Shown here in pieces: positions 3,596 through 58,253 of a stretch of 64,000 bases of DNA; the stretch's first letter is position 1; the number at the start of each line of letters is the position of its first letter. The translations under genes were made by a program, and so were the position numbers. Below the pieces are notes generated by a model that did not search any database, had not been told where the DNA came from, and worked only from the letters and a program-made list of their open reading frames with translations. The DNA comes from a bacterium (lineage in GTDB: Bacteria > UBP6 > UBA1177 > JAKLFG01): the NCBI GenBank assembly GCA_022711315.1, contig JAKLFG010000003.1:23890-87889 (forward strand), written 5' to 3'.

Positions 3596-3675
3596 CCATT
3601 GCCACCGAACTCGGCAAGACGACGACCGGTAAAAGAATTCTCGTCCACTATCTTTTTGTACTTCCGGGAACCGAG

Positions 3676-13792: not shown

Positions 13793-15337
13793 ATGAAACG
13801 AAGTGCACTCTGCCTTTTTTGTCTGTGTCTTACCGGCCTGATCGCGGCCTGCGATTCTTCGACCGCCCACAAGGACGCCGACACCGTCGGCGCATCGGAC
13901 ACCGACACCGTCGCGACCGACGAACTCACCGGCGACACCACCATCACCGACGGGCCGGTAACGGACACTGATGCCCCCCTTCCCGACCTATCGACCGACG
14001 ACGATACCCCGGCGACCGACGAACTCGTGACCGATACCGATGCCCCCGGGAGCGACGAACTGCTGACCGACACCGACGGGTATATCAACCCCGCCTGCTC
14101 TTCCGTCGGCGAGACCTGCGTCACCGGCATCGACTGCTGTTCCGGCGCCTGCGAGAAGAACCCGATCGGCGACTTCGTCTGCATCGATGCGGAACTTTGC
14201 GAGCCGGTGGGCGGCGACTGCACGGTGGCGGCCGACTGCTGTTCGCTCGGCTGCGACGGCACGACATGCATCGATTCTCTCTGCCTGGTCACCAACGACC
14301 CGTGCATCGACGACGCCGAATGCTGTTCCAACCGCTGTGAGGTCAATTTCTGCGCGAGCGGCGGCGCCTGCCTTCCCGTCGGCGAGGATTGTTCGACGGG
14401 CGGCTCGACAAGTTGCTGTTCGATGAACTGCGCCGAGGCATCGGACGGCAAGATGCGCTGTATGGGAATCGGGGTCTGCCGTTCCGAGGGCGAGGTCTGC
14501 AGCGAGGACAGCGACTGTTGCAATTACCAGTGCACCGCCGAAGGGTTCTGTCTGGTGCAGCAGGAATGCGATGTCGCCGGCGAGGCATGCAACGACCCGA
14601 AGGCCTGCTGCAGCGGCGTATGCGCCGATGACGGCAGCGGCTATAAATTCTGCCAGTCGCTCGGTGGGTGCAAGGTGTTCGGCGAATTGTGCCACACCGA
14701 TGCCGAGTGCTGTAACAACCCGGCCAACGGCGGTCCCGGCGTCTGCGCCGAGGTCGCGGAAGGGATAGGCCGTTGCGAGAACCCGACCGGCTGCGCACCG
14801 GCGGGCGAACTGTGCGGCGAGGGCTACCACGACTGCTGTCCCTGCGCGACGCCACAGGATTCGCCGGGGTGCCCGAACGACAACGGCGACCTGTTCTGTC
14901 AGGAGACGATATTCGGCATATCGCGCTGTTTCTCGGCCAACTGCGTCATCGAGGGTGGTCCCTGCGATTCGAACGACGATTGCTGCGGCGGCAACTGCAA
15001 CGAGGAGAACACCTGCGGCCCCGGGATCGAGTGCCTTCCCAACCTCTCCCCCTGCGCCATGCCCGACCAGTGCTGCTGCAACATCTGCGCGCCGGACGGG
15101 AACGGCGATCTGGTCTGCTGCCCCGGCGACATCGAATGCATCCCCGAGGGCGAACACTGCACGACCGACCTCGACTGCTGTTCGGGCAACTGCAGCGTCA
15201 ACGGCATCTGCGGACCCGACATATCCGACTGCATCCCGGTCGGCGGCGAATGCGAGAAGGATGAGGATTGCTGTTCCGGCTCCTGCTATGAGGTGACCGG
15301 CACCTGCAATAGCCCGTTCTTCTTTTTCGTCTATTGA
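13793..15337 (+). CDS. Secreted lipoprotein: acidic D/T linker plus about 13 tandem six-cysteine (C-C-CC-C-C) knottin/Dickkopf-like modules
   Basis: Signal CLCLTGLIAAC, a DTDTV-rich linker, then repeated C-x4-6-C-x5-6-CC-x3-C-x4-10-C units (e.g. CEPVGGDCTVAADCCSLGCDGTTC). Confidence 0.7.
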   Translation: MKRSALCLFCLCLTGLIAACDSSTAHKDADTVGASDTDTVATDELTGDTTITDGPVTDTDAPLPDLSTDDDTPATDELVTDTDAPGSDELLTDTDGYINPACSSVGETCVTGIDCCSGACEKNPIGDFVCIDAELCEPVGGDCTVAADCCSLGCDGTTCIDSLCLVTNDPCIDDAECCSNRCEVNFCASGGACLPVGEDCSTGGSTSCCSMNCAEASDGKMRCMGIGVCRSEGEVCSEDSDCCNYQCTAEGFCLVQQECDVAGEACNDPKACCSGVCADDGSGYKFCQSLGGCKVFGELCHTDAECCNNPANGGPGVCAEVAEGIGRCENPTGCAPAGELCGEGYHDCCPCATPQDSPGCPNDNGDLFCQETIFGISRCFSANCVIEGGPCDSNDDCCGGNCNEENTCGPGIECLPNLSPCAMPDQCCCNICAPDGNGDLVCCPGDIECIPEGEHCTTDLDCCSGNCSVNGICGPDISDCIPVGGECEKDEDCCSGSCYEVTGTCNSPFFFFVY

Positions 15338-32028: not shown

Positions 32029-34066
32029 AAGAAGAGAACTCTCATTCCTGAAGAAAAGAAAGCAGATGCGGGATCGCTTGCGTGCGCTTTCGTCGACCCC
32101 TCAGGCCATCGCGATCAGCGAGTATCGCCAGCGGATCATTCAGGCCATCAGGATGGCCGGCGGCACCGAGGCGAGTAGCGACCATCTCATCAGCATTCTC
32201 GACGATATCCTGCGTAGCAAGAGCGAGATCACCGTCGAAGAGATAGATGCCTTGTTCCCCGAGAACGCCGATTTCTCGGTGGACGACATGGAACTCCTCT
32301 TCAATGTGCTCGACGAGTTCAAGATACCGGTCATCTCGGAGAAGATAGACGAAGAATCGTTCCCCACCGACCTGCCGATAATCCGAAAACCCCACATTCC
32401 GCAGGATCGCGGCCGCAAGGACCCCCTCCGGATGTACATGCTCACCATCGGTTCGGTGCCCCTGCTGACCAAGGAAGGCGAGGTCGCCATCGCGCAACGC
32501 ATAGAGGAGGGCGAAAAGGATATCATACGGACCCTGCTTTCCGTATTCATCTCGTTCAAGGAGATCATCTCCATACCCGACCGGATACTCAACGAGCAAC
32601 TCTCCCTCAAGGAGGTCGTCCGCGAGGCGGACGAGGAACTGGCCGACGAGGAGGATGAGCGGGAGGAGGTCGTTGAGCCCGCCGAGGATGACGAGGACGA
32701 GGAACTGAAGGAACTGAGTGAAGGGAAGATCGGGGAGATACCCGACGAGGACGACGAGGAGGACGACGAGGACGAGGAGACGGAGGAAAAGCCGGCCCCC
32801 GCCGCGACGGCCCCCGCGAAAGAGCCCGAGCCGGAAAAAGACCCCGCGCTCGAGCGTCAGCGCCAGATCATCGAGACCCTCTCCCGTCACATCGACCGGC
32901 TCAAACAACTCAACCGTGAACGCGAACGGATGCTCAAGCAGACGCTGTCGGCCCGTACGCGGAAGATGAAGGACCGGCTCGCCGACGACCGGCTTGACCA
33001 GATGGTCGCCGTCGTCCTCGACATGCGACTCAATAAGAACTATCTCAAAACGCTCGGCGACCGCATCCGCATGTATCGCGACAAGGTCGATCAACTCGAC
33101 CGGAGCATCGCCCAGATCGAGCGCTCGCTCAACATGGGGTTCGCCCAGATGAACGAGATCATCTCGCGACCTCAGCGGTTCTCCGTCATGGACAAACGGA
33201 ACCTGCAGCAGATACGCGAGAAATACACGCTCATCGTCCAGACCAAGCGCAGCATAAAGAAACTCGAGGCCGAAACGGGGCTGTCGGCAAAGGACCTCAA
33301 GGCCTGCGCCGACCAACTCTACCACGCAGAAGAATCGGTCCGACTCGCGAAGAACGAACTGATACAGGCCAACCTGCGGCTCGTCGTTTCCATCGCGAAG
33401 AAGTACAACAACCGCGGGCTCGACTTCAAGGACATCATCGCCGAGGGCAACATCGGGCTCATCAAGGCGGTCGACAAGTTCGAATACAGCCGCGGCTATA
33501 AATTCTCGACCTACGCGACCTGGTGGATACGCCAGTCGATAACGCGCGCCATCGCCGATCAAGGCCGGACCATCCGCATACCGGTCCACATGATCGAGAT
33601 GATGAACAAGATAAACAAGACCATCAAGGAACTGACCAACAAGAACGGCTATGAGCCGGGCATCGCCGATGTCGCCAAGGCGATGAACATACCGGAGGAG
33701 AAGATCCGCAAGGTGTGGCGCTCGGCGCGCGAGACGATATCGCTCGAAACGCCCATCGGCGAAGACGAGGACAGCCAACTGCAGGATTTCGTCGAGGACC
33801 CGAAGACCATGGGGCCCGAGGAATACGCCGCGAAGCAGAACATGGCCGAGATCATCCGCGACCTCTTCGACGGACTCACCCCGCGCGAGGAGAAGGTCAT
33901 CCGCATGCGTTTCGGCGTCGGCGAGACCGAGACCTACACGCTCGAGGAGATCGGCAAGGACATGGGCGTCACCCGCGAACGCATCCGCCAGATCGAGGCG
34001 AAGGCGGTCATGAAACTCCGCAAGATGCTCAAGCAGAAACGGACCAGTTGGGAAGATTTCTCGTAA
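32021..34066 (+). CDS. rpoD: RNA polymerase sigma-70 factor RpoD
   Basis: [24 protein letters not shown] (region 2) and [20 protein letters not shown] (region 4). Acidic insert in region 1. Overlaps dnaG by 8 nt. Confidence 0.95.
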
Positions 34067-45209: not shown

Positions 45210-46586
45210 ATGAAAAAGACCGTGTTCGACATCGGCCTGCTCGTCTACGGCGCCGCCGCCTATTTCGGCTATCTCGTCGTCGTCGTTTTCGTGCTCAAGG
45301 ACCGTTACGACATCGGACTCTATCTTTTTTCCGTCCCGTTCCTCTACGCCATATTCCGCGTACTCAGCGCCCGGATAAAGCGGGCGTCGCTCCTCACCGC
45401 GATCTATCTCGCGCTCCCCTTTTTCCTTTCGGTCTACCTGTCGCTGACGGGGCGACCGGCCGTCTGGGAGGTCACCGGGATACTGCCGGTCACCGCTCTT
45501 CTATCGTTCGCCTTGAGGTCAGAAAAGAGTTCGTCACCGCTTTTCACGAAACTGCTCTCCCCGGTGTGGACGCTCTTCTTCCTGCTCATACTGTCCCTGC
45601 CGGCCGTCAACTATCTCAACAACCGCGACCTGCCCCGTGCGCTCCAACTCCTCCTCTCCATCTACACCCCCGCCATCACCCTCTCCACGCTCGCGGTGTT
45701 CCTCCGTTTCGTCATAGAGACCGCGAGCCTCAATATGGCGCTCAACAATTTCCGACTGTTCATCCACGGCGCCCGCATCGACCGGGTGGTGTTCGATCCG
45801 GCCGACTTCCTTTCGCTCTCGCAGACGAGTCTTTCGGGCATCGTGACCGGCCCGACGATGTCGCGCGAACAGTTCCTGAAAAAGGTGGAACTGCTCAATC
45901 GCGAGTTCGTATCCGCCGAAGACGGCGTGGACGCCATGAAACGGGACGCGAAATTCAGCCGGACGCTCCCCGACGGCACCGAACTCACGCTCGCGCCGAT
46001 CGCCCTGCTTGTCCGCGAAGGTTTTCTCACCGACGGCCTGCCGCCGGCCCCCGAAGACCCGAAAAGGTCTTATGTGGCGCTGGCGGAAGGACGCCGCGTC
46101 ATCGGCTACTATGTGGTCGATCGCTTCGATCCCACCGCCAACCGGACGATGATAGATGTCCTGCGGGAGAAATATGCGGTGCCGGTGGTCATCGTGGGCG
46201 GCGAAGAACTGAAAAAGCGGTTCCCCGGCGCGCTCGTCGTCTCGCGACAAGAGGACATCACGCTCGACAACCGCGATCTGCTCGTCACGCAGGACCCGCC
46301 CGAGAAGAGCCCCGCCATCGTCATGGCGTGGGGCAAAAAGAATGTGGACGCCGGCGACATATTCCTCGCCGACCCCTCGCTCCTCAACATCATGCGGCTC
46401 GTGCTCGTGCTCGGCGGCGTCAGGGGACGCCTCTACCGCAGCATGGCCGTATCGTCGCTCCCCTTCCTGTTGCCCCTGTTCCTTTCGATATACCGGCTAC
46501 ATATCCCGCAGATCAACGCGGTCGCGGTCCTCATCATGATACTGCTCATCATGACGCAGACCTTCCGGAGCATGAAGGCGGAATAA
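45210..46586 (+). CDS. Integral membrane protein, unknown function (N-terminal TM helices plus soluble domain plus C-terminal TM)
   Basis: Hydrophobic segments. No recognisable motif. Confidence 0.5.
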   Translation: MKKTVFDIGLLVYGAAAYFGYLVVVVFVLKDRYDIGLYLFSVPFLYAIFRVLSARIKRASLLTAIYLALPFFLSVYLSLTGRPAVWEVTGILPVTALLSFALRSEKSSSPLFTKLLSPVWTLFFLLILSLPAVNYLNNRDLPRALQLLLSIYTPAITLSTLAVFLRFVIETASLNMALNNFRLFIHGARIDRVVFDPADFLSLSQTSLSGIVTGPTMSREQFLKKVELLNREFVSAEDGVDAMKRDAKFSRTLPDGTELTLAPIALLVREGFLTDGLPPAPEDPKRSYVALAEGRRVIGYYVVDRFDPTANRTMIDVLREKYAVPVVIVGGEELKKRFPGALVVSRQEDITLDNRDLLVTQDPPEKSPAIVMAWGKKNVDAGDIFLADPSLLNIMRLVLVLGGVRGRLYRSMAVSSLPFLLPLFLSIYRLHIPQINAVAVLIMILLIMTQTFRSMKAE

Positions 46587-46595
46587 TCTTATCCG

Positions 46596-46745
46596 CCGCC
46601 ATCCCGCCCTGTCACTGTAGGCCGTCCCGGACGAGACTGTGGTACAGTGTCGACAGGCCGGAAGCCGCAGCATTCATGCGAGGTAAGGGTTGGGTGGGTT
46701 TTATTAAAAACGGGAGATCACTTCGCGCACCGGAAGCCGAAGTAG
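46596..46745 (-). repeat. Copy 1 of a conserved ~150-bp 3'-end/3'-flank element (last codons FGFRCAK plus ~120 nt structured downstream region)
   Basis: About 90% identical by eye to 47889-48035. Contains an interrupted 12-bp inverted repeat (cctgtc-gac-actgta ... tacagtgacagg). Confidence 0.8.
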
Positions 46746-47653
46746 TCGGCGATGCTACCCTCGCCAACGTCGACGCGAGAGGACGCGCGCAAGTAGATCA
46801 AGTAGATGACAAGGTCGTGGCGCCACGACCCACCGCGCATCACGCGACCATCACCGGTTTCTGGCCCCGTGGGGTTGTTTGTAGGCGACGAAGTGTAGTA
46901 ATCCTCATCATACCGGTCGTTCACCCACTCCCAAACATTCCCTATCATGTCGTGGGCGCCGTAGGGCGATACGCCGTTCGGCTTGCTTCCTACCGGCATC
47001 GTGCCGTCGGTGCCACAACCCTCGCCGCCAGCATCGTCATCGTCCATGACGGCATAATCGCACGATACGGCCGGGGTATCACCCCACGGATATTTCCTGC
47101 CGTCGGTCCCTCTGGCCGCTTTTTCCCATTCCGCCTCGGTCGGTAGGCGACCGCCTATCCACTCGCAGTAGGCCTTCGCCCCGTACCAAGACAGGCAATT
47201 CATGGGATGATTGTCCCTATCGGGTGCCCCGAGGTTGCAATAGGGGATGTCGGTGTTTGTGTAATAGTGCGGTTCATTCTCGTTGCTATTATTGCAGGTG
47301 CCGTTGGTCACGCACTGCTGGTATTCACCGACGGTCACTTCGTATTTGCCGATCTTGTAGGCCGAGAGCGTCACTGCATGGTACGGGGATTCATCACCCT
47401 CGCATTGATCATCCACCGCCTCGTTACACCCCATCCAGAATTCACCGGCGGGGACTTCCACCATCTCCCCCGGCGTACCAGTGTTTCCCCCCGTGTCGGC
47501 ATCGGGCTGTTCCGTGTCGGGGATCGTTGAATCGTTGGTCACCGTATCGTTGATCACCGTGTCGGTGTCGGGCGTTTCGGTCCCGTCATCGCCACAGGAA
47601 ACGATGAAAAGAACCGCCATCATCACAAGAAGGCCGCTCAATATGCCTTTCAT
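46718..47653 (-). CDS. FGE-sulfatase (SUMF1/EgtB/PvdO-fold) domain lipoprotein, copy 1
   Basis: Lipobox ...LFIVSC. GNVWEWVND and RVMRGGSW motifs of PF03781-type domains. Confidence 0.75.
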   Translation of the reverse strand: MKGILSGLLVMMAVLFIVSCGDDGTETPDTDTVINDTVTNDSTIPDTEQPDADTGGNTGTPGEMVEVPAGEFWMGCNEAVDDQCEGDESPYHAVTLSAYKIGKYEVTVGEYQQCVTNGTCNNSNENEPHYYTNTDIPYCNLGAPDRDNHPMNCLSWYGAKAYCEWIGGRLPTEAEWEKAARGTDGRKYPWGDTPAVSCDYAVMDDDDAGGEGCGTDGTMPVGSKPNGVSPYGAHDMIGNVWEWVNDRYDEDYYTSSPTNNPTGPETGDGRVMRGGSWRHDLVIYLIYLRASSRVDVGEGSIADYFGFRCAK

Positions 47654-47888
47654 GCTTCTCCTCCTTCCGTCGGTTGATGAAAAACGCTATGAATCGATCG
47701 TTTGTTTTGAAGAAATATTTTTACAGACAGACAGCAATCGGTGTACCGTAATAACCCGTCAGAACAGGAAAAAATCATCGTTCGCCTCATAGAAGACAGC
47801 GGAATTATAACAAGCGGAGATGAAAAGACAAGAAAAGGTAGGATCGCACAAACCCCCTCATTCCCCCTTGACAGAGAGAGGGGGACGA

Positions 47889-48035
47889 CCGCCATCCCGC
47901 CCTGTCACTGCAGGCCGTCCCGGACGAGACTGTGGTACAGTGTCGACAGGCCGGAAGCCGCAGCATTCATGCAAGGTAAGGGCAGGGAGGATTTTACAAA
48001 CGGGAGATCACTTCGCGCACCGGAAGCCGTAGTGG
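47889..48035 (-). repeat. Copy 2 of the conserved 3'-end/3'-flank element
   Basis: See copy 1. Confidence 0.8.
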
Positions 48036-48994
48036 GGACCGTAACTGTCCGGGCTAGCATAACTGCGGTAGGACGATCGCATATCGAAGCCGTCGCTATA
48101 GGCATACCACGATCCGCCGCGCAACACGCGGACAACACCCGTTTCTGGCCCTGCGGGGTTGTCTGTAGGCGATGAGGCATAGTAATTCCACGCATACCAG
48201 TCGTTCACCATCTCCCATACATTGCCCGCCATGTCATAGGCACCGTAGGGGCTTTTGCCTGCCTCCTTGCTTCCTATCGGCATGGTTCCGTCTCTACTGC
48301 ATCCATCCTCAGTTATGACCGCGTAATCGCAGGTCACGTCTTCGTTGCCCCACGGGTACTTTCTACCGTCGGTGCCCCGCGCCGCCTTTTCCCATTCCGC
48401 CTCGGTCGGCAATCTGCCGCCTATCCATTCGCAGTAGGCCTTCGCGCCGTACCATGTCACGCATTGCATCGGGTGATTCCCTTTTTCTTCCGCACCGAGG
48501 TTGCAATCGGATTCGTCGGTGTTTGTATAGTGGTGCGGTTCGTTCTCGTTACTGTTGTTGCACGCACCATTAGTCACGCACTGCTGGTACTCACTGACGG
48601 TCACCTCGTACTTGCCGATCTGGTAGGCCGAGAGCGTTACCGCGTGATAGGGAGATTCATCATCTTCATCATCTTCGCCGCATTGATTATCCACCGCCTC
48701 GTTGCATCCCATCTGGAATTCTCCGGCGGGGACTTCCACCATCTCCGGCGGGGTGCCGGTCCCGTAGTCAACATCGGGCTGTTCGGTGTCGGTCACGGCT
48801 GTGTCCTTGTCGGGCGTCTCGGTCGGATCAACGCACACATTCGACAGACACACGAGGTCGCCGTCGCAGGTGCCGTTCCCGTAACAGTCGCCCCCTTTCG
48901 ACCCCATCGCCGGTTCTTTCGTCCCGTCCTCGCCGCAGGCAACGACGAAAAGAACCGCCATCATCACAAGAAGGCCTCTCAAGATGCCTTTCAT
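48008..48994 (-). CDS. FGE-sulfatase domain lipoprotein, copy 2 (paralogue with extra Cys-rich N-segment)
   Basis: Lipobox ...LFVVAC. Same GNVWEMVND and RVLRGGSW motifs. N-terminal signal region nearly identical to the 46718 and 50189 genes. Confidence 0.75.
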   Translation of the reverse strand: MKGILRGLLVMMAVLFVVACGEDGTKEPAMGSKGGDCYGNGTCDGDLVCLSNVCVDPTETPDKDTAVTDTEQPDVDYGTGTPPEMVEVPAGEFQMGCNEAVDNQCGEDDEDDESPYHAVTLSAYQIGKYEVTVSEYQQCVTNGACNNSNENEPHHYTNTDESDCNLGAEEKGNHPMQCVTWYGAKAYCEWIGGRLPTEAEWEKAARGTDGRKYPWGNEDVTCDYAVITEDGCSRDGTMPIGSKEAGKSPYGAYDMAGNVWEMVNDWYAWNYYASSPTDNPAGPETGVVRVLRGGSWYAYSDGFDMRSSYRSYASPDSYGPHYGFRCAK

Positions 48995-49070
48995 ACTTCT
49001 CCTCCTTCCATCGGTTAAGATCTTACAGGGAACAGGGTATTGTAGCGGAGCAAAGGGGACAAAGGGACGC

Positions 49071-49433
49071 TCACAAACAATAAGGGTTGTTCATATAACA
49101 AAGTTCCATGTCGGATTCCTCGTCAAGATCGCAACCCAACGATCTCACACAATTAACAAACCCTTTTGCTTTTCCGGCATTAAAACTCCCCTCACCGAAG
49201 CACGGATACCCTTCTTCGCTGGTATTGGTTTCCCAACAATCCTGTTTGCATTCCTCCATGCCGGAAGGATACTCCGAGTCAAACTCATCGGTTCGACAGG
49301 TTTGCGCCCACGGACAGATCGTAGCGCAATAATCTGTTACAAAACTCTCCCCTGAGTAGTCGTCCTTGTCGCAGGAAACAAATGCGAACGAGAGGAAAAG
49401 AAGCAGAACGAGGGCATATCTCTGTGGCTTCAT
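49071..49433 (-). CDS. Small Cys-rich secreted lipoprotein (about 120 aa)
   Basis: Start at internal Met MKPQRYALVLLLFLSFAFVSC (lipobox). 10 Cys in the mature part. Confidence 0.5.
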   Translation of the reverse strand: MKPQRYALVLLLFLSFAFVSCDKDDYSGESFVTDYCATICPWAQTCRTDEFDSEYPSGMEECKQDCWETNTSEEGYPCFGEGSFNAGKAKGFVNCVRSLGCDLDEESDMELCYMNNPYCL

Positions 49434-49462
49434 GTCAGCACTCCCGATCCTAAGAAAAGTTA

Positions 49463-50083
49463 TCAAAACTTGTACGCGATGCCGAACAACGCATTAAAAT
49501 TACCGTTGGTGAAGTTATCCGCATAAGGAACATCCTTCGCCACTCCCAAAAAGCCAAAACCAAAACGAAGATCCCCGGTGACAAAAAGATTGTCGACCAC
49601 CTCGTAAAAGACCTCAGCACCAAAGATAATCCCTAGATCGAAAATGTCGAGGGAGTCGGTGATGTCGACCTCAACCCCGGAGCCACTCGCAGTCGCTTTC
49701 ATGAGAATGGAAAGGTCAAGCCCGCCGTAGGGCTGTATCAATATCGGAGAAACATCGAAGACCCCCTTCAGCAGTAGCGGCACAGAGAAGTAATGCAGAA
49801 TGCCACGAGCATCCATATCCTTGACGCCATACCCCTTCATTTCATAACCGAGTTCGGCCTGGAAAGCCAGATAGTCCATAAAGCGGTACATCGCCGAAAG
49901 GCTCAGCCCCATACCGACGGCGGCCTCTGTACCTCTAGCCCCCTCTCCTAGAACAAAAGCGGCTCCGGGACCGATCTTTGCCCCGGCAAAAAAGCCTTTG
50001 GGATCCTTTTCTTCTTCGGCAAGCAGAGCGTTCGAACAAAGCAAGGCGCACAGAACAAACGCTGAAACAAAGAATTCTCTCAT
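49463..50083 (-). CDS. Outer-membrane beta-barrel protein (OmpW/OmpA-like small porin family)
   Basis: Signal peptide, alternating amphipathic strands, C-terminal ...GIAYKF (terminal Phe). Confidence 0.6.
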   Translation of the reverse strand: MREFFVSAFVLCALLCSNALLAEEEKDPKGFFAGAKIGPGAAFVLGEGARGTEAAVGMGLSLSAMYRFMDYLAFQAELGYEMKGYGVKDMDARGILHYFSVPLLLKGVFDVSPILIQPYGGLDLSILMKATASGSGVEVDITDSLDIFDLGIIFGAEVFYEVVDNLFVTGDLRFGFGFLGVAKDVPYADNFTNGNFNALFGIAYKF

Positions 50084-50188
50084 GATGTTCCTCCTCTGGC
50101 GAAATGGATTAGTGATCGCAACCTGTTCTATCCCTCATTCTTTCGTTGAAGTTCTAATCGGTGCGCACATCAATATACTCTCCAACAT

Positions 50189-50686
50189 TTATGTTCCGGC
50201 ATCCCGGACACAACGGGCATTGATTTCATCGTCACGATTCGCGTGGTAAACGCCTCCATTCTGAAAGAAAATCTCCCATGCCATGTCGGGGAGTTCTGAC
50301 ACCAACGAAGAAGACCAGAATTCACTGGAATCGTCCAATCTGGAATGGGTAACATCTTCCTCTTCCTCGGGGCAACCGTCACAATCGAAACTCCAGCAAG
50401 AAGACGACAAACAACCATCACTGGCCCTGCATGAGCCACCGAGGGCCGTCTTCGAACAGTCTTTTATCAACGACCGCAACTCTGAAATAGTGGGTAAGCG
50501 CCAATCATCATGCCCCTCTTCAACAAGATCTTCACAATAGACAATAGCATCGTATTGAGTTATGCCGGACTTTTCTTGTGACCACTGCTTATTCGTCATT
50601 TCCGTTTCTTTCGTCTCGTCCTCGCCACAGGCAACGACGAAAAGAACCGCCATCATCGCAAGAATGCCGCTCAAGAGTCCTTTCAT
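50189..50686 (-). CDS. DUF1566 (Lcl C-terminal-like) domain lipoprotein sharing the 5' module with the FGE lipoproteins
   Basis: Lipobox ...LFVVAC. DDWRLPTISELRSLI motif. Confidence 0.65.
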   Translation of the reverse strand: MKGLLSGILAMMAVLFVVACGEDETKETEMTNKQWSQEKSGITQYDAIVYCEDLVEEGHDDWRLPTISELRSLIKDCSKTALGGSCRASDGCLSSSCWSFDCDGCPEEEEDVTHSRLDDSSEFWSSSLVSELPDMAWEIFFQNGGVYHANRDDEINARCVRDAGT

Positions 50687-50752
50687 ACTTCTCCTCCTTC
50701 CATCGGTTGATGAAAAACGCTATGAATCGATCGATAGTTTTGAGAGGTTACG

Positions 50753-50780
50753 AGACAGACAGACAGACAGACAGACAGAC
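50753..50780. repeat. (GACA)7 tetranucleotide microsatellite in the 5' leader of the 50189-50686 gene
   Basis: Read directly. The homologous position upstream of the 46718-47653 gene (47720-47732) carries only 2-3 units. Confidence 0.9.
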
Positions 50781-50897
50781 AGCAATTAATATACCGTAAC
50801 ATATCGTCAAAACAGGGGAAAATCATCGTCCGTCTCCCAAGCAACAGAGGCATGATAACAAAAATAAAAGTCTATGGCAAAAAAAATCGAAGGAATG

Positions 50898-51818
50898 TTA
50901 TTTGTGACCCGACAGGTACCGTTCCGCGGCGGTCGCCGCCGCCGCGCCGTCGCCGACGGCCGTCGCCACCTGATAGACTATCTTTTCGACCACATCGCCC
51001 GCCGCGAAAAGTCCTGGGGTGCCGGTCGTGCCGTCGGGATTCAATGCAATTCGTCCGGTCGGTGACAGCGTCACGAGGTGCTTGACCGGCTCTGTCTGCG
51101 GCGTGTAGCCGACGAAGACGAACACGCCGTCGAATGGATGATCGCTCATCTCGCCGCTTTTGACATTCTTCACGGTGACCGACTCGACGAAATCCTTGCC
51201 CGTTATCTTTTCGACGACACTCTCGAGCATCAGTTTGATCTTGGGGTGCTTCCGAACTTCGTCCTGTATTATCTTTTCGGCGCGGAACTCGTTGCGCCGA
51301 TGGATGATGACCACCTCCGAGGCGAAACGCGTGAGGTAGATCGCCTCCTTGAGCGACGAATCGCCGCCGCCGACCACCGCCACCCGCAGGTTGCGGTAGA
51401 AGGCACCGTCGCACACCGCGCAGTAGGAAACGCCGCGCCCGACGAACTCCATCTCGCCCGGGACATCGATCCTGCGCGGCGACGAACCGGCGGCCCAGAT
51501 GACGCTCCGCGCCGACACCTCGCCACCATCGGAAGTGAGGCGAAAGCCCTCCGCCGTCCTCTCGACCTTCGTCACCGTTCCCATCATCATCTGCGCCCCG
51601 AAACGGAGCGCCTGCTTGAACATCAGTTCCGACAGGTCGCCCCCGCTCACCGTCTCATGACCGGGATAGTTCTCCAACTTGTCAGTGAGCGCCATGAGCC
51701 CGCCGATGGCCCCTTTCTCGAAGATGACGGTCGAAAGCATCGCGCGGCCCAGATAGATAGCGGCGGTGAGCCCGGCCGGCCCGCCTCCGACGATAGCGAC
51801 ATCATACCTCTGCGACAT
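50898..51818 (-). CDS. trxB: Thioredoxin-disulfide reductase
   Basis: YDVAIVGGGPAGLTAAIY and the CAVC active site. Start at the internal Met MSQRYD. Confidence 0.9.
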   Translation of the reverse strand: MSQRYDVAIVGGGPAGLTAAIYLGRAMLSTVIFEKGAIGGLMALTDKLENYPGHETVSGGDLSELMFKQALRFGAQMMMGTVTKVERTAEGFRLTSDGGEVSARSVIWAAGSSPRRIDVPGEMEFVGRGVSYCAVCDGAFYRNLRVAVVGGGDSSLKEAIYLTRFASEVVIIHRRNEFRAEKIIQDEVRKHPKIKLMLESVVEKITGKDFVESVTVKNVKSGEMSDHPFDGVFVFVGYTPQTEPVKHLVTLSPTGRIALNPDGTTGTPGLFAAGDVVEKIVYQVATAVGDGAAAATAAERYLSGHK

Positions 51819-51846
51819 AGTGAACTCCTGTATATTGTTCCCGGAC

Positions 51847-53409
51847 CTAGAATCTCCCTCCGAATGACACACCACCGACGCCGGTCACTTGCGGCGTCCG
51901 CACGATACTGATGCCGACGGGACTCGGGTCGCCATCGTAGGCAGTGCCCCCTTCGACCCGCGCATAGAGTTCCCAGAACAGGTTCCGCACCGGGAAGGAG
52001 AGCGTCGTTTCGCCGTAGTACCGCGTCGCCCCGCCCTTCACGGTGAACATCGGCGCCAGCGCGAACTCTTTTTTATGATCCGCTTCACTGTGGGCCGGGA
52101 ACTGGTAGAGCCCGATCCGGTATTCGAGCGTCAGCCACGGCGCGGCCGACCAGCGATGTTTGAAGAATATGCTCTGGAAATTGCGGCCGAAGGGATACCC
52201 GAGCGAGAAGCCGCGATAGGAATAGCCCTCCTCCTGATACAGGTGATGGCGATAGAAACTGAGCGCTGTTTTGGCGTACTCGATGCGGAAGAAGTGATCG
52301 TCAAGCGACATCGTGAGCCCCATGAGATAGGCCCGCTCGAAGAAATGAAAGAATACCCACGGGATGGTGAATATCCGGTCCTCCGGCTGCCACGGCGCCG
52401 CGATGTCGGTCCCCGCCTCTTGAAAATAGAATCGGAGCGACCGCACCGCGCCATCGGTCCAGCGGTCCATGGGGAGCGATATCGTGAAGTCGAGCGCCGC
52501 GTAGCCGTCGTTGTCGAACCGGCCGCGCGTCACATTGTCCTTGCCGCCGAATATCACCTCGGGCATCTCGTGTATCTTGTAGGAGGGGCGCCCCGCGCCG
52601 CCGTACAGTTCAGTGCGGGTGACGCCGAGTTCCAACCATCCGACCGGCTGATAGACCATCCGCGCCGCGAACAGAAGCGGGTCCGAATGGTCGCGCCGCT
52701 GGTCGAGGAGCCAACCGTTGAGCACCATGAACGACCATTTCCCGAAGAACTCGATCGTTTCCTCGTTCTGGAACTTGACCATCCAGTACGGTTCCGCGTT
52801 CGCCGACAGGAGCAGCCCCCACTCACCCGGCCCGAAATTGACGCTGTCACGCCCCCCTTCAATGGAGAACTTGCCCAATTTCACCTTGGCATAGGCGCGG
52901 TGTATCTGATGTTCCTGTCCATCATCGCGCCAGATATGACGGAAACTCCAGTAGGCGCTGAACCGCTCACGGATGGTCATGTTCCCGTCCTCGGTGAGGA
53001 TGCCGTTCAGCCCCTCGTGCAGAGAAAGCCCCGAACGGCCGGGAAGGAAGGTGTCGCTGTTCGCATAGAGCGTCATGCTCCGGAATCCCTGCAGGGGCTG
53101 GACATAGGTCCCGCGATCGACCCCCTTGGTGAAAAGAACGACCCGGTCATACCGGTCGAGGGCGGAGAGTGTCTCGCGCAGGGCAGAGGGCGTCGCGGCC
53201 ATCGGCTCGCGCCGGTAGGACGAGTCGCCGTCAACCATCTCCCAAACGACGGTGTCCTCCGGCAGGATGTTGATGAGCGGGTCGGTGTCTCCCCGCACCG
53301 GTTCATGGAATAGGCGCGGCAGAAGAAAGGTGTTACCGGTCGGCCCCGCGGCGAAAAGCGGCGACGCGCCGCATATAAGAAGAAAGATAGAGAGCCACCG
53401 CGCCATCAT
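51847..53409 (-). CDS. Secreted outer-membrane-type protein (possible beta-barrel), unknown function
   Basis: Signal MMARWLSIFLLICGASPLFAAG. Aromatic-rich alternating strands. C-terminal ...SFGGRF. Confidence 0.45.
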   Translation of the reverse strand: MMARWLSIFLLICGASPLFAAGPTGNTFLLPRLFHEPVRGDTDPLINILPEDTVVWEMVDGDSSYRREPMAATPSALRETLSALDRYDRVVLFTKGVDRGTYVQPLQGFRSMTLYANSDTFLPGRSGLSLHEGLNGILTEDGNMTIRERFSAYWSFRHIWRDDGQEHQIHRAYAKVKLGKFSIEGGRDSVNFGPGEWGLLLSANAEPYWMVKFQNEETIEFFGKWSFMVLNGWLLDQRRDHSDPLLFAARMVYQPVGWLELGVTRTELYGGAGRPSYKIHEMPEVIFGGKDNVTRGRFDNDGYAALDFTISLPMDRWTDGAVRSLRFYFQEAGTDIAAPWQPEDRIFTIPWVFFHFFERAYLMGLTMSLDDHFFRIEYAKTALSFYRHHLYQEEGYSYRGFSLGYPFGRNFQSIFFKHRWSAAPWLTLEYRIGLYQFPAHSEADHKKEFALAPMFTVKGGATRYYGETTLSFPVRNLFWELYARVEGGTAYDGDPSPVGISIVRTPQVTGVGGVSFGGRF

Positions 53410-56051: not shown

Positions 56052-56140
56052 TGGTGCCGGAGACCGGGGTCGAACCGGTGCAGGGCTTGCGCCCCGAGGG
56101 ATTTTAAGTCCCTTGCGTCTGCCAATTCCGCCACTCCGGC
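56052..56140 (-). tRNA. tRNA-Leu (anticodon UAA), long variable arm, encoded CCA
   Basis: Manually folded: acceptor GCCGGAG/CUCCGGC, anticodon loop CUUAAAA, T-arm GGUUCGACCCC. Confidence 0.75.
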
Positions 56141-56161
56141 ACAATAAGTATCTGGTAAGGA

Positions 56162-56236
56162 TGGAGGCGCCTTCCGGATTCGAACCGGAGATGGAGATTT
56201 TGCAGACCTCTGCCTTACCACTTGGCCAAGGCGCCC
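56162..56236 (-). tRNA. tRNA-Cys (anticodon GCA)
   Basis: Manually folded: acceptor GGGCGCC/GGCGCCU, anticodon loop CUGCAAA, T-arm GGUUCGAAUCC, encoded CCA. Confidence 0.75.
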
Positions 56237-56255
56237 CGGATAAGAGGAAAAAAAA

Positions 56256-56331
56256 TGGAGCGGGAAAAGGGATTTGAACCCTCGACCTCAACCTTGGCAA
56301 GGTTGCACTCTAGCCACTGAGTTATTCCCGC
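56256..56331 (-). tRNA. tRNA-Gly (anticodon GCC)
   Basis: Manually folded: acceptor GCGGGAA/UUCCCGC, anticodon loop UUGCCAA, T-arm GGUUCAAAUCC, encoded CCA. Confidence 0.75.
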
Positions 56332-56450: not shown

Positions 56451-58253
56451 ATGCGTGGTGTCGTGTTCTTATTCACCTTTTTGTCGCTTTTACTGATTTC
56501 CTGCGATAATCAGGTGGCGCAGCGCCCCGAGGCGCACAGCGACCAGGACACCGTAGGCCCTGACGACATCGGTGACTTCCCTCTGCTTGCCGACGAGTGG
56601 CAGAACGACTTCCCTCCGACCGAGAGCGAGGCTCCCCTCGCCGATCAGGACCCCTTCATGCCGCCGGACGACACCACCGACAACGCGTCGGATGACACCA
56701 CCGACAACGCGTCGGACGACACCACCGACACCGTACCCGATGATATCCCCGACGAGACGACCGACGAAACGACCGACCATGGACCGGACGAGACCACCGA
56801 CGAGACCACCGACGAGGTTCCCGACGAGATGAACGACGAGGCCAGCGACAGCATGCCGGAGGAGGATCCCGACCTTGATGAGGCGGTCATCGACGATGCT
56901 CCCGTCGAAGATGACCCGCTTCCCGACGACACGGTCATCCCGCCCGACCCCGATATCATACCGGAGACCGATATCTTGCCCGAGCCCGATCAATCCCTCC
57001 CCGATCTCGACATCCCGTTCCCCGAAAGCGACATACTTCCCGAAACCGATGTCCTGCCCGAATACGACCTTCTACCGGAACCGGATGGCACCTTCCCCGA
57101 GCAAGATGTCCTGCCGGAGTCCGACATCGTGATGCCGGAGCCCGATCAGCCACTTCCCGACCCCGACATGTTACCCGATCCCGATCCCGATACCGATACC
57201 GTCACACCCGACATCGACATTGTGTCCGACGCCTGCACCGTTGACGGCGACTGCACCTTCGGATACCGCTGCGATACCACCACATCGCCTCGCGCCTGCC
57301 TCTTTGCGAGCACCTGCGACAACGATTTCGACTGTCAGAACTACCAGACCTGTCAGGTGGTCGGCAACTGGAAGGAATGTCGCTTCGACCTGAGCGACAG
57401 TTGCGAGACCGATGCCGACTGCGCGCCGGGCGAGGTCTGCGAGACGGTCATCCTCGGCTACAAGGTCTGCCGTTCCATGAACAAATGCCTCACGAGCGAA
57501 GAATGCGCCGCGAATGAGGTCTGTGACTGGACCGGCTCCTACTACGACTGCGTCGCGGTCTGCACGGTCGACACCGACTGCGCATTCGGCTACCAATGCA
57601 TCGCCGGAACCCCCTACAACCAGTGCGAGTACGCCAACGAGTGTCAGAATGACGCCGATTGCCCCGCCTTCCGGACCTGCGAACCGTCAGGCAACTGGAT
57701 GCAGTGCATCCTCTCACTCGGCGGTGGCCTCTGCCTGAATGACACGAACTGCGACCCGAGCGAATACTGCGATCTTTCACTCGGCTTTTTCGGGACCTGC
57801 AAATCGCGGGACCAGTGCGCCATGGACGCCGACTGCGGCGACAATATGATCTGCGAATTCAACGGCACCTACAACGAATGCGTTCCGACGAATCCGAAGC
57901 AGTGCCTGTTCGACTTCCAGTGTCCGGACGGCTGGATATGCGCCGATAATGTCTGCACTCCTCAGTACGCCGGCGCCTGCGCCGAGATCGAGGGGATGTG
58001 GCAGGTGCTCATCAGCACCTCGTTCCTCTTCACGCAGGGAAATTCCTACGAGTTCATACCCAAGGACGGTTGCGCCGGATCGGTAAGACCGGAAGGTCAA
58101 TCGGTCGCGACCGGCAGTTTCTCACAGACGGCGGCGAAACAGTATGATATCACCATGCTCCTGTTCTTCGACTGCGAGGCGTCGATAACGCTGAACGCCG
58201 TCATGCAGGTGACCTGCCCGAGCGGCAGCGCGACGCTTATACGGAGCAACTGA
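56451..58253 (+). CDS. Secreted lipoprotein: very long acidic P/D/E/T linker with tandem nucleotide repeats, then ~9 tandem 4-Cys 'DC..G..C' modules
   Basis: Lipobox ...LLLISC. DDTTDNASDDTTDNAS repeats. Modules such as CETDADCAPGEVC...C and CLFDFQCPDGWIC. Confidence 0.7.
   Translation: MRGVVFLFTFLSLLLISCDNQVAQRPEAHSDQDTVGPDDIGDFPLLADEWQNDFPPTESEAPLADQDPFMPPDDTTDNASDDTTDNASDDTTDTVPDDIPDETTDETTDHGPDETTDETTDEVPDEMNDEASDSMPEEDPDLDEAVIDDAPVEDDPLPDDTVIPPDPDIIPETDILPEPDQSLPDLDIPFPESDILPETDVLPEYDLLPEPDGTFPEQDVLPESDIVMPEPDQPLPDPDMLPDPDPDTDTVTPDIDIVSDACTVDGDCTFGYRCDTTTSPRACLFASTCDNDFDCQNYQTCQVVGNWKECRFDLSDSCETDADCAPGEVCETVILGYKVCRSMNKCLTSEECAANEVCDWTGSYYDCVAVCTVDTDCAFGYQCIAGTPYNQCEYANECQNDADCPAFRTCEPSGNWMQCILSLGGGLCLNDTNCDPSEYCDLSLGFFGTCKSRDQCAMDADCGDNMICEFNGTYNECVPTNPKQCLFDFQCPDGWICADNVCTPQYAGACAEIEGMWQVLISTSFLFTQGNSYEFIPKDGCAGSVRPEGQSVATGSFSQTAAKQYDITMLLFFDCEASITLNAVMQVTCPSGSATLIRSN

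Follow-up and report, generated by a model that had tools for sequence, protein, structure and literature searches.

The region analyzed here, part of a 64,000-nt stretch of bacterial DNA (hereafter, the window), is a strain-variable islet of 4.3 kb whose site is prone to recombination and a hot spot of variation in its lineage. Under the best explanation, to which we assign a probability of about 0.65, a 5' module belonging to a family of FGE-fold lipoproteins has been kept uniform by gene conversion and grafted onto a foreign segment. The islet (46583..50903, 4321 bp; all islet features described below are on the minus strand) separates the stop codons of two core genes that converge on it, one encoding a 458-aa membrane protein (45210-46586) and the other a thioredoxin-reductase-like protein (50898-51875). 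Its presence is polymorphic: two loci from relatives (L022 and L023) join window position 46582 directly to 50904, with flanks ~89% identical to those of the window, and in two loci from another relative (L050 and L051), a different lipoprotein array and an IS256-family transposase occupy the site. Five independent metagenome contigs, one of them truncated by its own contig end, carry the same 4.8 kb around the locus with 100% identity, and a sixth differs by one base; because this sequence recurs nearly unchanged in six independent assemblies, the islet is not an assembly artefact.

Three lipoprotein genes, denoted g1, g2 and g3, carry the shared module. The g3 product (50189..50686) contains a C-type-lectin-like Lcl_C/DUF1566 domain (Pfam 3e-16, 60.2 bits vs a cut-off of 34.9), and its AF2 model (pLDDT 83.5) is matched best in Foldseek by the Lcl C-terminal domain (8q4e), with C-type lectin-like domains ranking next. 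It is followed by genes for a small outer-membrane beta-barrel protein (49463..50083, 206 aa; Pfam OMP_b-brl, 5.6e-10, and OMP_b-brl_2; GC 0.507) and a Cys-rich lipoprotein (49071..49433, 120 aa, lipobox FVSC; ORF and gene call; GC 0.471), both of which the sequence-only reading had recognized; the latter has no Pfam match and one faint NCBIfam match far below the cut-off, and belongs to no known family. The g2 protein (48008..48994) joins a Cys-knot linker to a non-catalytic FGE-fold domain (Pfam FGE-sulfatase, 7.9e-60), reaches no NCBIfam equivalog, and matches TvpA (2y3c) at 2e-18. In our reading of the PDB alignment, g2 has non-Cys residues at the positions of the FGE cysteine pair, which we take to be the catalytic pair of true FGE. 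The g1 protein (46718..47653) combines a Thr/Asp-rich linker with another non-catalytic FGE-fold domain (Pfam FGE-sulfatase, 1.5e-60; alignments). A spacer containing CAAGGGGGAATGAGGGGGTTTG (47832..47888) is homologous to the end of the L050 array.

The sequence-only reading described the whole block as AT-richer than the backbone, which holds for the islet in total (52.9% GC vs 60.4% in the window) but not for g1 and g2, which are close to the backbone at 58-59%. The drop comes mainly from g3 (48% in its mature part), the outer-membrane protein gene and the Cys-rich gene (47-51%), together with the leaders (41%), and the same partition is seen in GC3, which is 0.51-0.57 in the g3/OMP/Cys-rich segment (GC 0.47-0.51) vs 0.70 in g1 and g2 (GC 0.58-0.59).

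Alignment of the 5' regions bears out the near-identity of the three gene starts. A block extending from 25 nt before the ATG to ~90 nt after it is ~90-94% identical among g1, g2 and g3; when the three genes and their flanks were compared with the window using BLASTN, it was found only at these genes, with 89.7% identity over 136 nt for g1/g3 (E 8e-45), 92.5% over 107 nt for g2/g3 (E 3e-39) and 91.1% over 101 nt for g1/g2 (E 1e-33). In the MAFFT alignment, identity sets in at AACCGAYGGAAGGAGGAGAAG, 25 nt before the ATG, and falls sharply after the first mature residues, ending ~75 nt past the ATG in g1 and ~90 nt past it in g2 and g3. Beyond this point the sequences are unalignable. The original claim of unrelated cargo domains is overstated: these domains are not simply unrelated. 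The encoded peptides match those quoted earlier, with lipoboxes IVSC and VVAC. The g3 copy (50597..50711) comprises the Shine-Dalgarno sequence GGAAGGAGGAG, the ATG, the signal peptide MKGLLSGILAMMAVLFVVAC and the first mature residues GEDETKE, and the g1 copy (47564..47678) comprises a ribosome-binding site, the signal peptide MKGILSGLLVMMAVLFIVSC and GDDGTE. The g2 copy (48905..49019), in which identity to the other two begins 25 nt before the ATG, has the ribosome-binding site and signal peptide only and lacks the upstream leader.

That leader, noticed earlier as common to two of the genes, belongs to ~200 nt shared upstream of g1 and g3, which include promoter-like sites with a TG-extended -10 that were identified as consensus matches. 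The g3 site (50852..50880, TTGCCA-17-TATCAT, 10/12 consensus matches) aligns with the g1 site (47804..47831, TTGTCT-16-TATAAT, from a consensus scan). The putative 5' UTRs, ~160 nt in g3 (50687..50845) and ~145 nt in g1 (47654..47797), are homologous by alignment, and neither folds significantly better than shuffled sequence (z +0.44 and +0.82, respectively). The g3 leader contains a perfect (CTGT)7.5 (50753-50782), the longest perfect tetranucleotide repeat listed by TRF in the window, vs three CTGT units in g1. Other members of the FGE family have related signal peptides ending in VLFAVSCG[DG]DGT, whereas the signal peptides of DUF1566 homologues of g3 are unrelated to that of the module, so the module belongs to the FGE family.

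Along their length, g1 and g2 have diverged very unevenly. The proportion of synonymous sites that differ (pS) is 2/16.3 = 0.12 in the signal peptide and 74.2/130.5 = 0.57 in the FGE core (dS 1.06, dN 0.14; Fisher p = 0.0009), the final 31 nt of the coding sequences and the stop region are identical, and the 3' non-coding element is 94-98% identical, with ~3 mismatches in 95 nt (binomial p = 5e-30 vs pS). This element is the family 3' UTR into which an imperfect palindrome of 75 nt is inserted, in both g2 (47889..48007, insert 47904-47978) and g1 (46596..46717, insert 46611-46685, ending 13 nt from the islet boundary); L052 and L050 have the family 3' UTR without the insert. The element has no U-tract terminator, and its predicted folding is not more stable than that of shuffled sequence (z +0.07 and +0.61 as RNA, -1.2 as DNA). 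Because of this non-uniformity, the gene ends appear to have been homogenized by gene conversion or recombination, which fits better than one duplication followed by even decay. We infer conversion from the contrast in identity, to which strong nucleotide-level selection on the ends would be the alternative explanation.

A plain tandem duplication, in which the ends stay similar only through purifying selection on the ribosome-binding site, signal peptide and terminator, is accordingly disfavored and, in our estimate, improbable. It would account for g1 and g2 being adjacent, co-oriented and alignable end to end, and gene 5' ends and terminators are indeed functional sequences. However, the synonymous sites of the signal peptide are about five times better conserved than those of the core, the 3' element is ~98% identical against a core pS of 0.57 and lacks a U-tract, and g3 possesses the module and leader with an unrelated mature sequence. 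Moreover, the module tolerates change: its counterpart in a related species' FGE gene (P0058, L030) retains 80% identity, alongside 71-78% in the core, and the module is thus not intrinsically constrained at the nucleotide level. The single tandem duplication with uniform divergence against which the cassette idea was originally set therefore does not fit the data.

The combination of a constant module with varying cargo recurs outside the islet. L050 and L051 share 3471 nt at 100% identity and part ways right after a shared signal peptide and Cys-knot module, one continuing into an FGE domain and the other into foreign cargo of 30-35% GC that is still trailed by the family 3' UTR; this difference could reflect two paralogs and a collapsed assembly rather than two alleles. 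The family is also mosaic, in that the Cys-knot linker of L050/L051 is 89% identical to that of g2 while the signal peptides differ, and the L051 array contains internal repeats of its 5' module (93%). Weak searches of 1.84 billion representative proteins and DNA scans of the genome contigs and metagenomes, also weak, detected no further near-identical module, and with only three copies known, a genome-wide cassette system is unsupported.

Programmed variation, either phase variation via the leader (CTGT)n or shufflon- or integron-type site-specific exchange of cassettes, is suggested by the perfect (CTGT)7.5 of g3, compared with the three units of g1, and by the cassette-like layout with repeated ends. 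We consider it very improbable: the (CTGT)n length is the same in all six assemblies, the islet has no inverted repeats of at least 18 bp, no recombinase, invertase or integrase gene is present in the islet or within 10 kb of g3, and inspection of the 3' element revealed no attC-like signature. The islet is invariant across the six assemblies, with no recombination caught happening and hence no sign of ongoing shuffling. The active shuffling, phase or antigenic variation envisaged by the sequence-only reading is thus not shown, and nothing points to the polymorphic effector or toxin locus that it also proposed.

g1 and g2 diverge most over the 26-28 codons that precede the GFRCAK motif, a segment that is hypervariable across the whole FGE-lipoprotein family. 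This segment, the nearly identical 3' ends of g1 and g2 with their downstream element, and the strain-specific insertion of the block all escaped the sequence-only reading. In g2, it lies between GGSW and GFRCAK (48029..48106; g1/g2 nucleotide identity ~50%, dN 0.80); in g1 (46739..46822), 20 of the 28 codons end in C, and the variable region includes a 9-nt tandem duplication (46790-46807) and an 18-bp perfect palindrome (46813-46830). These features raise the possibility, about which we are doubtful, that a diversity-generating retroelement (DGR) located elsewhere in the genome acts, or once acted, on g1, g2 and the wider family as its targets. The hyper-divergent segment would then be the variable repeat, the conserved GC-rich end of the coding sequence (GGNTTCCGGTGCGCGAAGTGA) the initiation-of-mutagenic-homing site (IMH), and the downstream palindromic element an inverted repeat assisting homing. 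The architecture of g1 and g2 fits known categories of DGR targets, the largest of which comprises lipoproteins that have an FGE-sulfatase domain and vary in a C-terminal segment; DUF1566 proteins are another category, and in Treponema as many as seven targets are remote (PMC5758913). The TvpA match and missing cysteine pair of g2 point the same way. Furthermore, K, E, Q, M and W make up 3.8% of the hypervariable segments vs 20.5% of the core (30 family members, p = 7.5e-40), C-ending codons 71% vs 38% (nine genes, p = 1.5e-22) and third-position C at four-fold degenerate codons 59% vs 38% (p = 0.001), the expected remnant of A-to-N mutagenesis of AAC codons, and synonymous sites at the end of the coding sequence are conserved in four paralogs from three loci.

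Against this possibility, no template-repeat-like third copy was detected in the window or any fetched locus, and the window has no ORF of at least 200 aa bearing a YxDD motif. On long contigs, three other paralogs have no reverse transcriptase gene within 10 kb; the same holds for a close homologue in a related genome, and none was seen in shorter assembled stretches around three further family genes. The g1 and g2 segments cannot share one template because they differ in length and at ~50% of positions; no population variant or sample shows any change in the variable segments of g1, g2, P0063 and P0084; Tyr/Ser/Asp/Gly-rich loops also occur in non-DGR binding sites; and the putative inverted repeat shows the poor folding reported above for the 3' element. 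The C-terminal loops of the family thus seem to bear a DGR-like footprint, with DGR membership not established. Involvement of a DGR would complement more than replace the best explanation, because it explains the 3' conservation and not the 5' module.

Under the favored explanation, conversion and grafting of the FGE-family module, the islet encodes envelope proteins in two units, the first consisting of a promoter, leader, g3, the outer-membrane protein gene, the Cys-rich lipoprotein gene, g2 and a 3' element, and the second of a promoter, leader, g1 and a 3' element. The constant module would be the native 5' end of the lineage's multigene family of non-catalytic, C-type-lectin-like FGE-fold lipoproteins, and gene conversion would have kept it, like the 3' ends, nearly identical between the old paralogs g1 and g2. 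It was probably also transferred to g3, being grafted onto a compositionally foreign three-gene segment (the g3 mature part, OMP and Cys-rich lipoprotein); the order module, foreign segment, module, g2 would be the expected trace of homologous recombination through the module. The module is predicted to supply a sigma-70-type promoter with an extended -10, a ~150-nt leader with a strong GGAGG ribosome-binding site, and a lipoprotein (SPase II) signal peptide with acidic first mature residues (C-G-[DE]-[DE]-x-T), so that different ligand-binding heads would be co-regulated, co-expressed and sent to one envelope location, presumably the surface.

Several known systems share parts of this organization. 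Like integron gene-cassette arrays, the islet has co-oriented tandem units that each end in an imperfect palindromic element, and foreign genes captured behind a resident expression signal; unlike them, it has no IntI integrase and no attC signature in the 3' element, its shared ends include coding sequence, and the probable mechanism is homologous rather than site-specific recombination. In Mycoplasma variable lipoprotein families such as vlp and vsa, a highly conserved 5' region and prolipoprotein signal are common to paralogs with differing mature regions, simple repeats are present in the promoter or leader, and switching is frequent, driven by slippage at promoter homopolymers or by site-specific inversion. 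The islet resembles these systems in its constant 5' and signal sequence, varied mature parts and leader repeat, but its repeat and arrangement do not vary across samples, and it has no invertase gene. The DGR lipoproteins TvpA of Treponema denticola (FGE-type, CLec1) and LdtA of Legionella (DUF1566-type, CLec2) belong to the same domain families as the islet proteins and likewise combine a lipoprotein signal, a C-type-lectin-fold domain and a hypervariable C-terminal segment (PMC5758913). TvpA has no FGE activity (PMC5758913), and the presumed catalytic cysteine pair is absent from g2; the C-ending codons and residue composition also resemble an A-mutagenized repeat, next to a conserved GC-rich end of the coding sequence. 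In contrast to DGR systems, the islet could be linked to no reverse transcriptase, template repeat or accessory gene, and no population-level variability was seen.

The Borrelia erp genes are described as the descendants of one promoter, leader and sorting sequence that was recombined onto many diverse cargo sequences (PMC10016077). The islet differs from these loci in lacking sequence homology to them, in its free-living (metagenome-derived) rather than pathogenic host, and in its C-type-lectin-like cargo, the surface exposure of which is predicted only; Erp loci are carried by cp32 prophage plasmids, which are multicopy and give each cell many alleles, compared with three chromosomal copies in one 4.3-kb islet here. 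What the islet has in common with the Erp lipoprotein genes of Borrelia burgdorferi (OspE/OspF/Elp, with their 'upstream homology box') is a conserved front part, comprising the promoter/operator, leader peptide and first mature (sorting) residues, to which diverse cargoes of unrelated or only distantly related sequence are attached; in both, the loci are stable in the short term despite a recombinant history. By this analogy, the islet can be viewed as a smaller version of the Borrelia erp lipoprotein gene arrangement.

The islet (46583-50903, 4321 bp), bounded by the stop codons of two convergent core genes that encode a 458-aa membrane protein and a thioredoxin-reductase-like protein, contains five genes, all in a single orientation according to the ORF list and the minus-strand sequence. 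These are g1 (46718-47653, minus strand; FGE-sulfatase, PF03781, Pfam E = 1.5e-60), g2 (48008-48994, minus strand; the same family, E = 7.9e-60), a Cys-rich lipoprotein gene (49071-49433, minus strand) without a Pfam match, a gene for a 206-aa OMP (49463-50083, minus strand; OMP_b-brl in Pfam) and g3 (50189-50686, minus strand; Lcl_C/DUF1566, E = 3e-16). Comparison of each of g1, g2 and g3, with flanks, against the whole window by BLASTN revealed a common 5' block, with 89.7% identity over 136 nt for g1/g3, 92.5% over 107 nt for g2/g3 and 91.1% over 101 nt for g1/g2 (E values 1e-33 to 8e-45); within the window, the matches were confined to these three genes, and a six-frame protein-level scan of the window found no fourth copy. 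In the alignment, identity starts at AACCGAYGGAAGGAGGAGAAG, 25 nt 5' of the ATG, spans the signal peptide (pattern MKG[IL]L.G[IL]L.MMAVLF) and the first mature residues, and then ends. The sequence-only reading, in which three genes open with near-identical sequence that diverges past the lipobox, in a block that also holds an OMP gene and a small Cys-rich lipoprotein gene, is borne out in each of these respects.

Lipoprotein signals were recognized by an N-terminal positive charge, a hydrophobic region and a lipobox of the form [LVI][ASTVI][GAS]C. The translations of g1, g2 and g3 begin with MK-G, continue into a hydrophobic core and reach the lipobox IVSC (g1) or VVAC (g2 and g3), and by these features the three proteins are predicted substrates of Lgt and signal peptidase II; the Cys-rich protein, read in the same way, has the lipobox FVSC. 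Alignment of the regions further upstream confirmed the leader (CGATCGATTCATAGCGTTTTTCATCAACCGA) of about 170 bp previously noticed in two of the genes: 170-200 nt are common to g1 and g3, and each of these regions carries one promoter-like site with a TG-extended -10 that matches 10 of 12 consensus positions, the two sites being the top matches in the region. A small minus-strand ORF (42 or 47 codons; 47650-47775 and 50683-50826) extends along each leader, keeps its frame across a 15-nt indel and overlaps the lipoprotein start by ATGA. As a coding peptide this ORF was rejected, given that, by hand count, about 13 of the changes between the copies are non-synonymous and about 3 synonymous, and it probably specifies no conserved peptide.

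The putative 5' UTR of g3 also includes a perfect (CTGT)7.5 run (AGAC on the plus strand; 50753-50782), the longest perfect tetranucleotide repeat in the window by TRF, of which three units are present in the g1 leader (47723-47734). No length polymorphism of this run was detected among six assemblies, so that at the assembly level it does not qualify as a phase-variable locus. Tandem repeats occur in other genes of the window as well (56665-56849, 13993-14076, 18830-18920 and 32743-32787), the first two consisting of ACC/GAC-rich units reminiscent of the Thr/Asp linker of g1; a 600-aa ORF at 56451-58253 contains arrays of 12- to 48-nt repeats, and genes for tRNA-Leu, tRNA-Cys and tRNA-Gly are located just upstream of it, at 56052-56331.

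The islet is a discrete and variable insertion in its lineage. Five independent metagenome contigs contain the same 4.8 kb at 100% identity, although a contig end cuts one of them short, and a sixth shows one mismatch; the agreement of six independent contigs rules out an assembly artefact. In two related loci (L022 and L023) with flanks about 89% identical, 46583-50903 is missing and the two convergent flanking genes abut. In another pair of related contigs (L050 and L051), a different array adjoins the orthologous 458-aa gene at the same site and comprises a 199-aa ORF, an IS256-family transposase (Transposase_mut, 2e-105) and two or three lipoprotein genes. As judged from these alignments, the identification of the site as a variable hot spot of the lineage holds up. 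In loci L024-L027 of a further relative (GCA_022709425.1 and others), synteny is lost right after a Wzi-like gene and the L21, L27 and Obg genes come next; therefore the islet neighbourhood has been rearranged between close relatives. The AT-richness attributed to the block applies to the islet overall (GC 52.9% vs 60.4% in the backbone) but not to all its genes: the drop is located in g3, the OMP gene and the Cys-rich gene (47-51%) and in the leaders (41%), whereas g1 and g2 are near-native (58-59%, GC3 0.70).

The two FGE-fold genes can be aligned end to end, but their divergence is very uneven. The 5' modules are 92-94% identical, the linkers differ mostly by indels, the FGE cores are about 80% identical (pS, the proportion of synonymous sites differing, 0.57; dS 1.06; dN 0.14), and identity falls to about 50% over the 26-28 codons that precede GFRCAK (dN 0.80); these are followed by 31 nt, stop codon included, that are identical and by a downstream stretch of about 95 nt with about 98% identity. 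Over the 24 codons of the signal peptide, 2 of 16.3 synonymous sites differ, vs 74 of 130.5 in the FGE core (Fisher p = 0.0009), and the non-coding 3' element shows about 3 mismatches in 95 nt vs the 57% expected (p = 5e-30). In P0058, an FGE-lipoprotein gene of a related species (locus L030), the module is 80% identical and the rest of the gene 71-78%, so that the module is not intrinsically frozen. Together, the low divergence of the ends relative to the core and the freedom of the module to change in P0058 argue that the gene ends in the islet are much younger than the interiors. A single tandem duplication followed by uniform decay, the simple account of such a gene pair, is at odds with the strongly unequal divergence of signal peptide, core and 3' element, and for g1 and g2 we infer gene conversion or recombination over simple duplication.

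The 3' element is composite, consisting of a family 3' UTR (TGATCTCC..TTTTAATAAAACCCACCCAACCCT...TGACAGGGCGGGATGGCGG) with a central 75-nt imperfect palindrome. The 3' UTR occurs without the palindrome in P0063, an FGE paralog (locus L052), and at the end of the L050 array. The palindrome is found only after g1 (46611-46685) and g2 (47904-47978), with about 98% identity between the copies; no further copy was detected in the window or in the fetched loci compared, and it yielded no Rfam match and no significant fold. Conservation through a riboswitch, a structured RNA or a terminator was considered and dropped, because RNA and DNA folding of the leaders and of the 3' element was no better than that of shuffled sequence. 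Rfam searches of the whole window at the gathering score, and of the islet at E <= 1, returned only three tRNAs elsewhere and one chance snoRNA match.

The direction of transfer can be read from the distribution of the module. Related signal peptides are present in other members of the FGE-lipoprotein family, of which the module is the usual 5' end, whereas even the DUF1566 homologues closest to g3 (identity at most 48%) carry signal peptides unrelated to it; this argues that g3 acquired the promoter, leader and signal peptide of the FGE-lipoprotein family, and that transfer probably proceeded from that family to g3. The segment of foreign composition (the mature part of g3, the OMP gene and the Cys-rich gene) is flanked by two copies of the 115-nt module, and the g1 unit by two copies of the 3' element. 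Homologous recombination through these short repeats, module copies in the first case and 3' element copies in the second, would yield both bracketed layouts and is their likely origin.

A second case of one module with different cargo comes from the array in L050 and L051. These contigs are 100% identical over 3471 nt and split directly after a common N-terminal module, MIKYLMTLVVAMLIVAC with the linker GDEGTKEPAMGSKGGDCYGNGTCDGDLVCLSNVCVDPTETPDKDT; beyond the split, L051 encodes an FGE domain and L050 an acidic 250-aa sequence without a family match (30-35% GC), behind which come the 3' UTR of the FGE family and a spacer with homology to 47841-47907 of the window. Regardless of whether the contigs are alleles or one of them is a collapsed assembly of neighbouring paralogs, two genes of that locus combine a single N-terminal module with different cargo. 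The Cys-knot linker of L050/L051 shows 89% nucleotide identity to the g2 linker, although the signal peptides differ; therefore signal peptide, linker and cargo assort separately from one another, as modules. In L051, gene 1 and gene 3 have 5' modules that are 93% identical. At 3285-4319, 154-753 and 851-2029, L050 carries two ORFs of 30-37% GC without a family match and the IS256-family transposase gene, and one of the two ORFs is fused in frame to the native signal peptide and Cys-knot module. A G-rich motif, CAAGGGGGAATGAGGGGGTTTG, occurs once in the window, at 47849-47870 in the spacer that separates the g2 unit from the g1 unit, and slight variants of it occur twice at the end of the L050 array (about 4327-4348 and 4415-4436); this motif may mark recombination joints.

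Searches for further copies and for ongoing variation delimit the phenomenon. A 30-residue N-terminal profile run against 1.84 billion cluster representatives, a library that may hide copies, retrieved only g3 and a g1 fragment, and a 42-aa signal-peptide profile, used in a word-indexed search of proteins, recovered nothing but g1 and g2 fragments. A DNA scan of a genome collection for GATGATGGCGGTTCTTTTC gave 15 single chance matches in unrelated taxa, evidently without matching the species representative; a metagenome scan for the ribosome-binding site and MKG pattern gave 18 chance matches and one real one (L041), without returning the known islet contigs; and scans of viral DNA yielded no match to either the signal-peptide core or the 3' element. 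L041 (ERZ795054 NODE-128806, 1.2 kb) fuses the leader and signal peptide of g1 with sequence translating as ...NSSHSSPSQAEDGIRD and looks like an adapter-derived assembly chimera; it is the representative of the g1 N-terminus in the protein library. Three FGE paralogs in the same MAG (P0102, P0063 and P0084) are scattered single genes with different signal peptides and no leader. Among assemblies and cluster variants, no population variation was detected in arrangement, (CTGT)n or proteins, and neither inverted repeats of at least 18 bp in the islet nor a recombinase or integrase among the neighbouring genes were found. The absence of such inverted repeats argues against an invertible element or shufflon, and with the invariance and the lack of a nearby recombinase it leaves programmed or ongoing shuffling unsupported. 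Of the gene conversion or cassette shuffling originally proposed, module sharing and recombination therefore stand and a genome-wide or active cassette system does not: in the protein and DNA collections, no module copies came to light beyond g1, g2, g3 and g1 fragments, and a role in antigenic variation is not upheld, with arrangement and proteins invariant among samples.

As to the cargo, g1 and g2 reach 205 and 203 bits against FGE-sulfatase PF03781 (cut-off 23.3), and g2 matches solved FGEs in the PDB at about 5e-31 and the Treponema DGR protein TvpA at 2e-18. In true FGE, a cysteine pair between GGS and GFRC is catalytic. In the PDB alignment, with columns assigned by eye, the cysteine pair of the FGE chains' motif ...C(H)..SYCN... 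is placed opposite non-Cys residues of g2 (YAYSDGFD), and in the family alignment this segment lacks Cys in g1, g2 and most other members; the NCBIfam equivalogs EgtB, GldK, PvdO and SenA all fall far below their cut-offs for the FGE-fold proteins. The lack of the pair and of any equivalog points to non-catalytic FGE-fold proteins, which are more likely ligand-binding lipoproteins than enzymes, although annotation pipelines call genes of this type "formylglycine-generating enzyme family." The g3 protein matches PF07603 (Lcl_C/DUF1566) at 60.2 bits (gathering score 34.9), and its AF2 model (pLDDT 83.5) has as its top Foldseek match the C-terminal domain of Legionella Lcl (8q4e, E = 1.1e-4, probability 1.0), followed by many C-type lectin-like domains. 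By this structural match and the literature on the fold class, both cargo types would be lectin-like binding heads. The description of the cargo domains as unrelated is thus not sustained at the level of fold; in a profile-profile comparison of DUF1566 and the FGE family, the signal peptides alone aligned, and no sequence homology was detected in the cargo.

The binding domains themselves carry a DGR-like footprint. In 30 members of the family, core identity to g2 is 54-75%, and the two stretches that lie between GGSW and GFRCAK are hypervariable, in length as well as in sequence; in g1 and g2, the hypervariable segments are at 46739-46822 and 48029-48106, with a dN of 0.80 vs 0.14 in the core. 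K, E, Q, M and W make up 3.8% of hypervariable residues vs 20.5% of core residues (30 members; p = 7.5e-40), codons ending in C 71% vs 38% (nine genes; p = 1.5e-22), and third-position C in four-fold degenerate codons 59% vs 38% (p = 0.001), the pattern expected if AAC codons were mutagenized at their adenines. Among cellular DGR targets, lipoproteins with an FGE-sulfatase or DUF1566 domain predominate, and some lie far from the reverse transcriptase (PMC5758913). A hypervariable C-terminal segment on an FGE-fold/C-type-lectin-fold domain is the architecture of such targets. At its 3' end, a DGR target would have an IMH-like GC-rich stretch and a downstream inverted repeat; here four paralogs share the GC-rich CDS end GGNTTCCGGTGCGCGAAGTGA even at synonymous sites, and an imperfect palindrome without a significant fold lies downstream of it. 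That the family consists of present or former DGR targets is a possible, though rather doubtful, reading, which would explain the 3' conservation but not the 5' module. A cognate template would be AAC-rich, matching ...TGG(AAC)nTTGCGCGCGTCCAACCGC(AAC)n...GGGTTCCGGTGCGCGAAG, and would differ from the variable repeat at adenines. A sensitive BLASTN search with the variable segments as queries, covering the window and, of the related loci, the seven longest, returned paralogous genes only, the 64-kb window contains no long YxDD ORF, and genes near seven paralogs (up to 10 kb on each side for four, less for three on short contigs) gave no RVT Pfam match. Likewise, the variable segments of g1, g2, P0063 and P0084 are identical in all contigs, which are consensus assemblies, and in cluster variants, and those of g1 and g2 are unequal in length. 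The g1 segment includes a 9-nt tandem duplication, (ATCTACTTG)x2 at 46790-46807, that encodes IYLIYL and is adjoined by an 18-bp perfect palindrome, GGTCGTGGCGCCACGACC, at 46813-46830.

For the islet as a whole, the module and the family 3' UTR could serve as portable homology arms, by which foreign DNA would be captured through homologous recombination and expressed as an exported lipoprotein, in the manner of an integron without an integrase; we put the probability of this speculative scheme at roughly 0.15. Such a scheme would fit the foreign g3/OMP/Cys-rich segment between two module copies, the L050 cargo of 30-35% GC in frame between a native signal peptide with Cys-knot and a native 3' UTR, and binding loops with the footprint of a DGR now absent or remote. 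On this reading, the footprint would suggest that two layers of diversification act on one surface-receptor family. The combination of one promoter, leader and sorting signal with many cargos is known from host-associated spirochaetes and mycoplasmas; the islet adds an instance from an environmental bacterium, uncultured and encountered in several metagenomes, and there are two cases in which DNA of foreign composition follows a native export module. The two protein families represented in the cargo are those on which DGRs draw most, and the cargo bears a DGR-like codon footprint with the retroelement undetected. This lineage could show whether DGR-made diversity is first fixed and later rearranged through ordinary recombination.

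Among known systems, the islet resembles the variable lipoproteins of DGRs in its domains and codon footprint but differs in that no template repeat, reverse transcriptase or variability was found, and it differs from an integron in that the neighbours include no IntI integrase and the 3' element, on inspection, no attC-like core sites; the locus counts neither as an integron or shufflon nor as a demonstrated contingency locus. The nearest described phenomenon, by analogy of functional class rather than by homology, is the erp genes of Borrelia (OspE/F/Elp, with the "upstream homology box"), in which a conserved promoter/operator, leader peptide and first mature residues precede cargos that arose independently many times and were attached by recombination; over short times the family is stable (PMC10016077). 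Unlike erp, the islet is chromosomal, not homologous and limited to three copies; like erp, it places a common promoter, leader and first mature residues before cargo of different composition and family, and the array at the same site in the relative represented by L050 and L051 provides a second instance of one module with different cargo.
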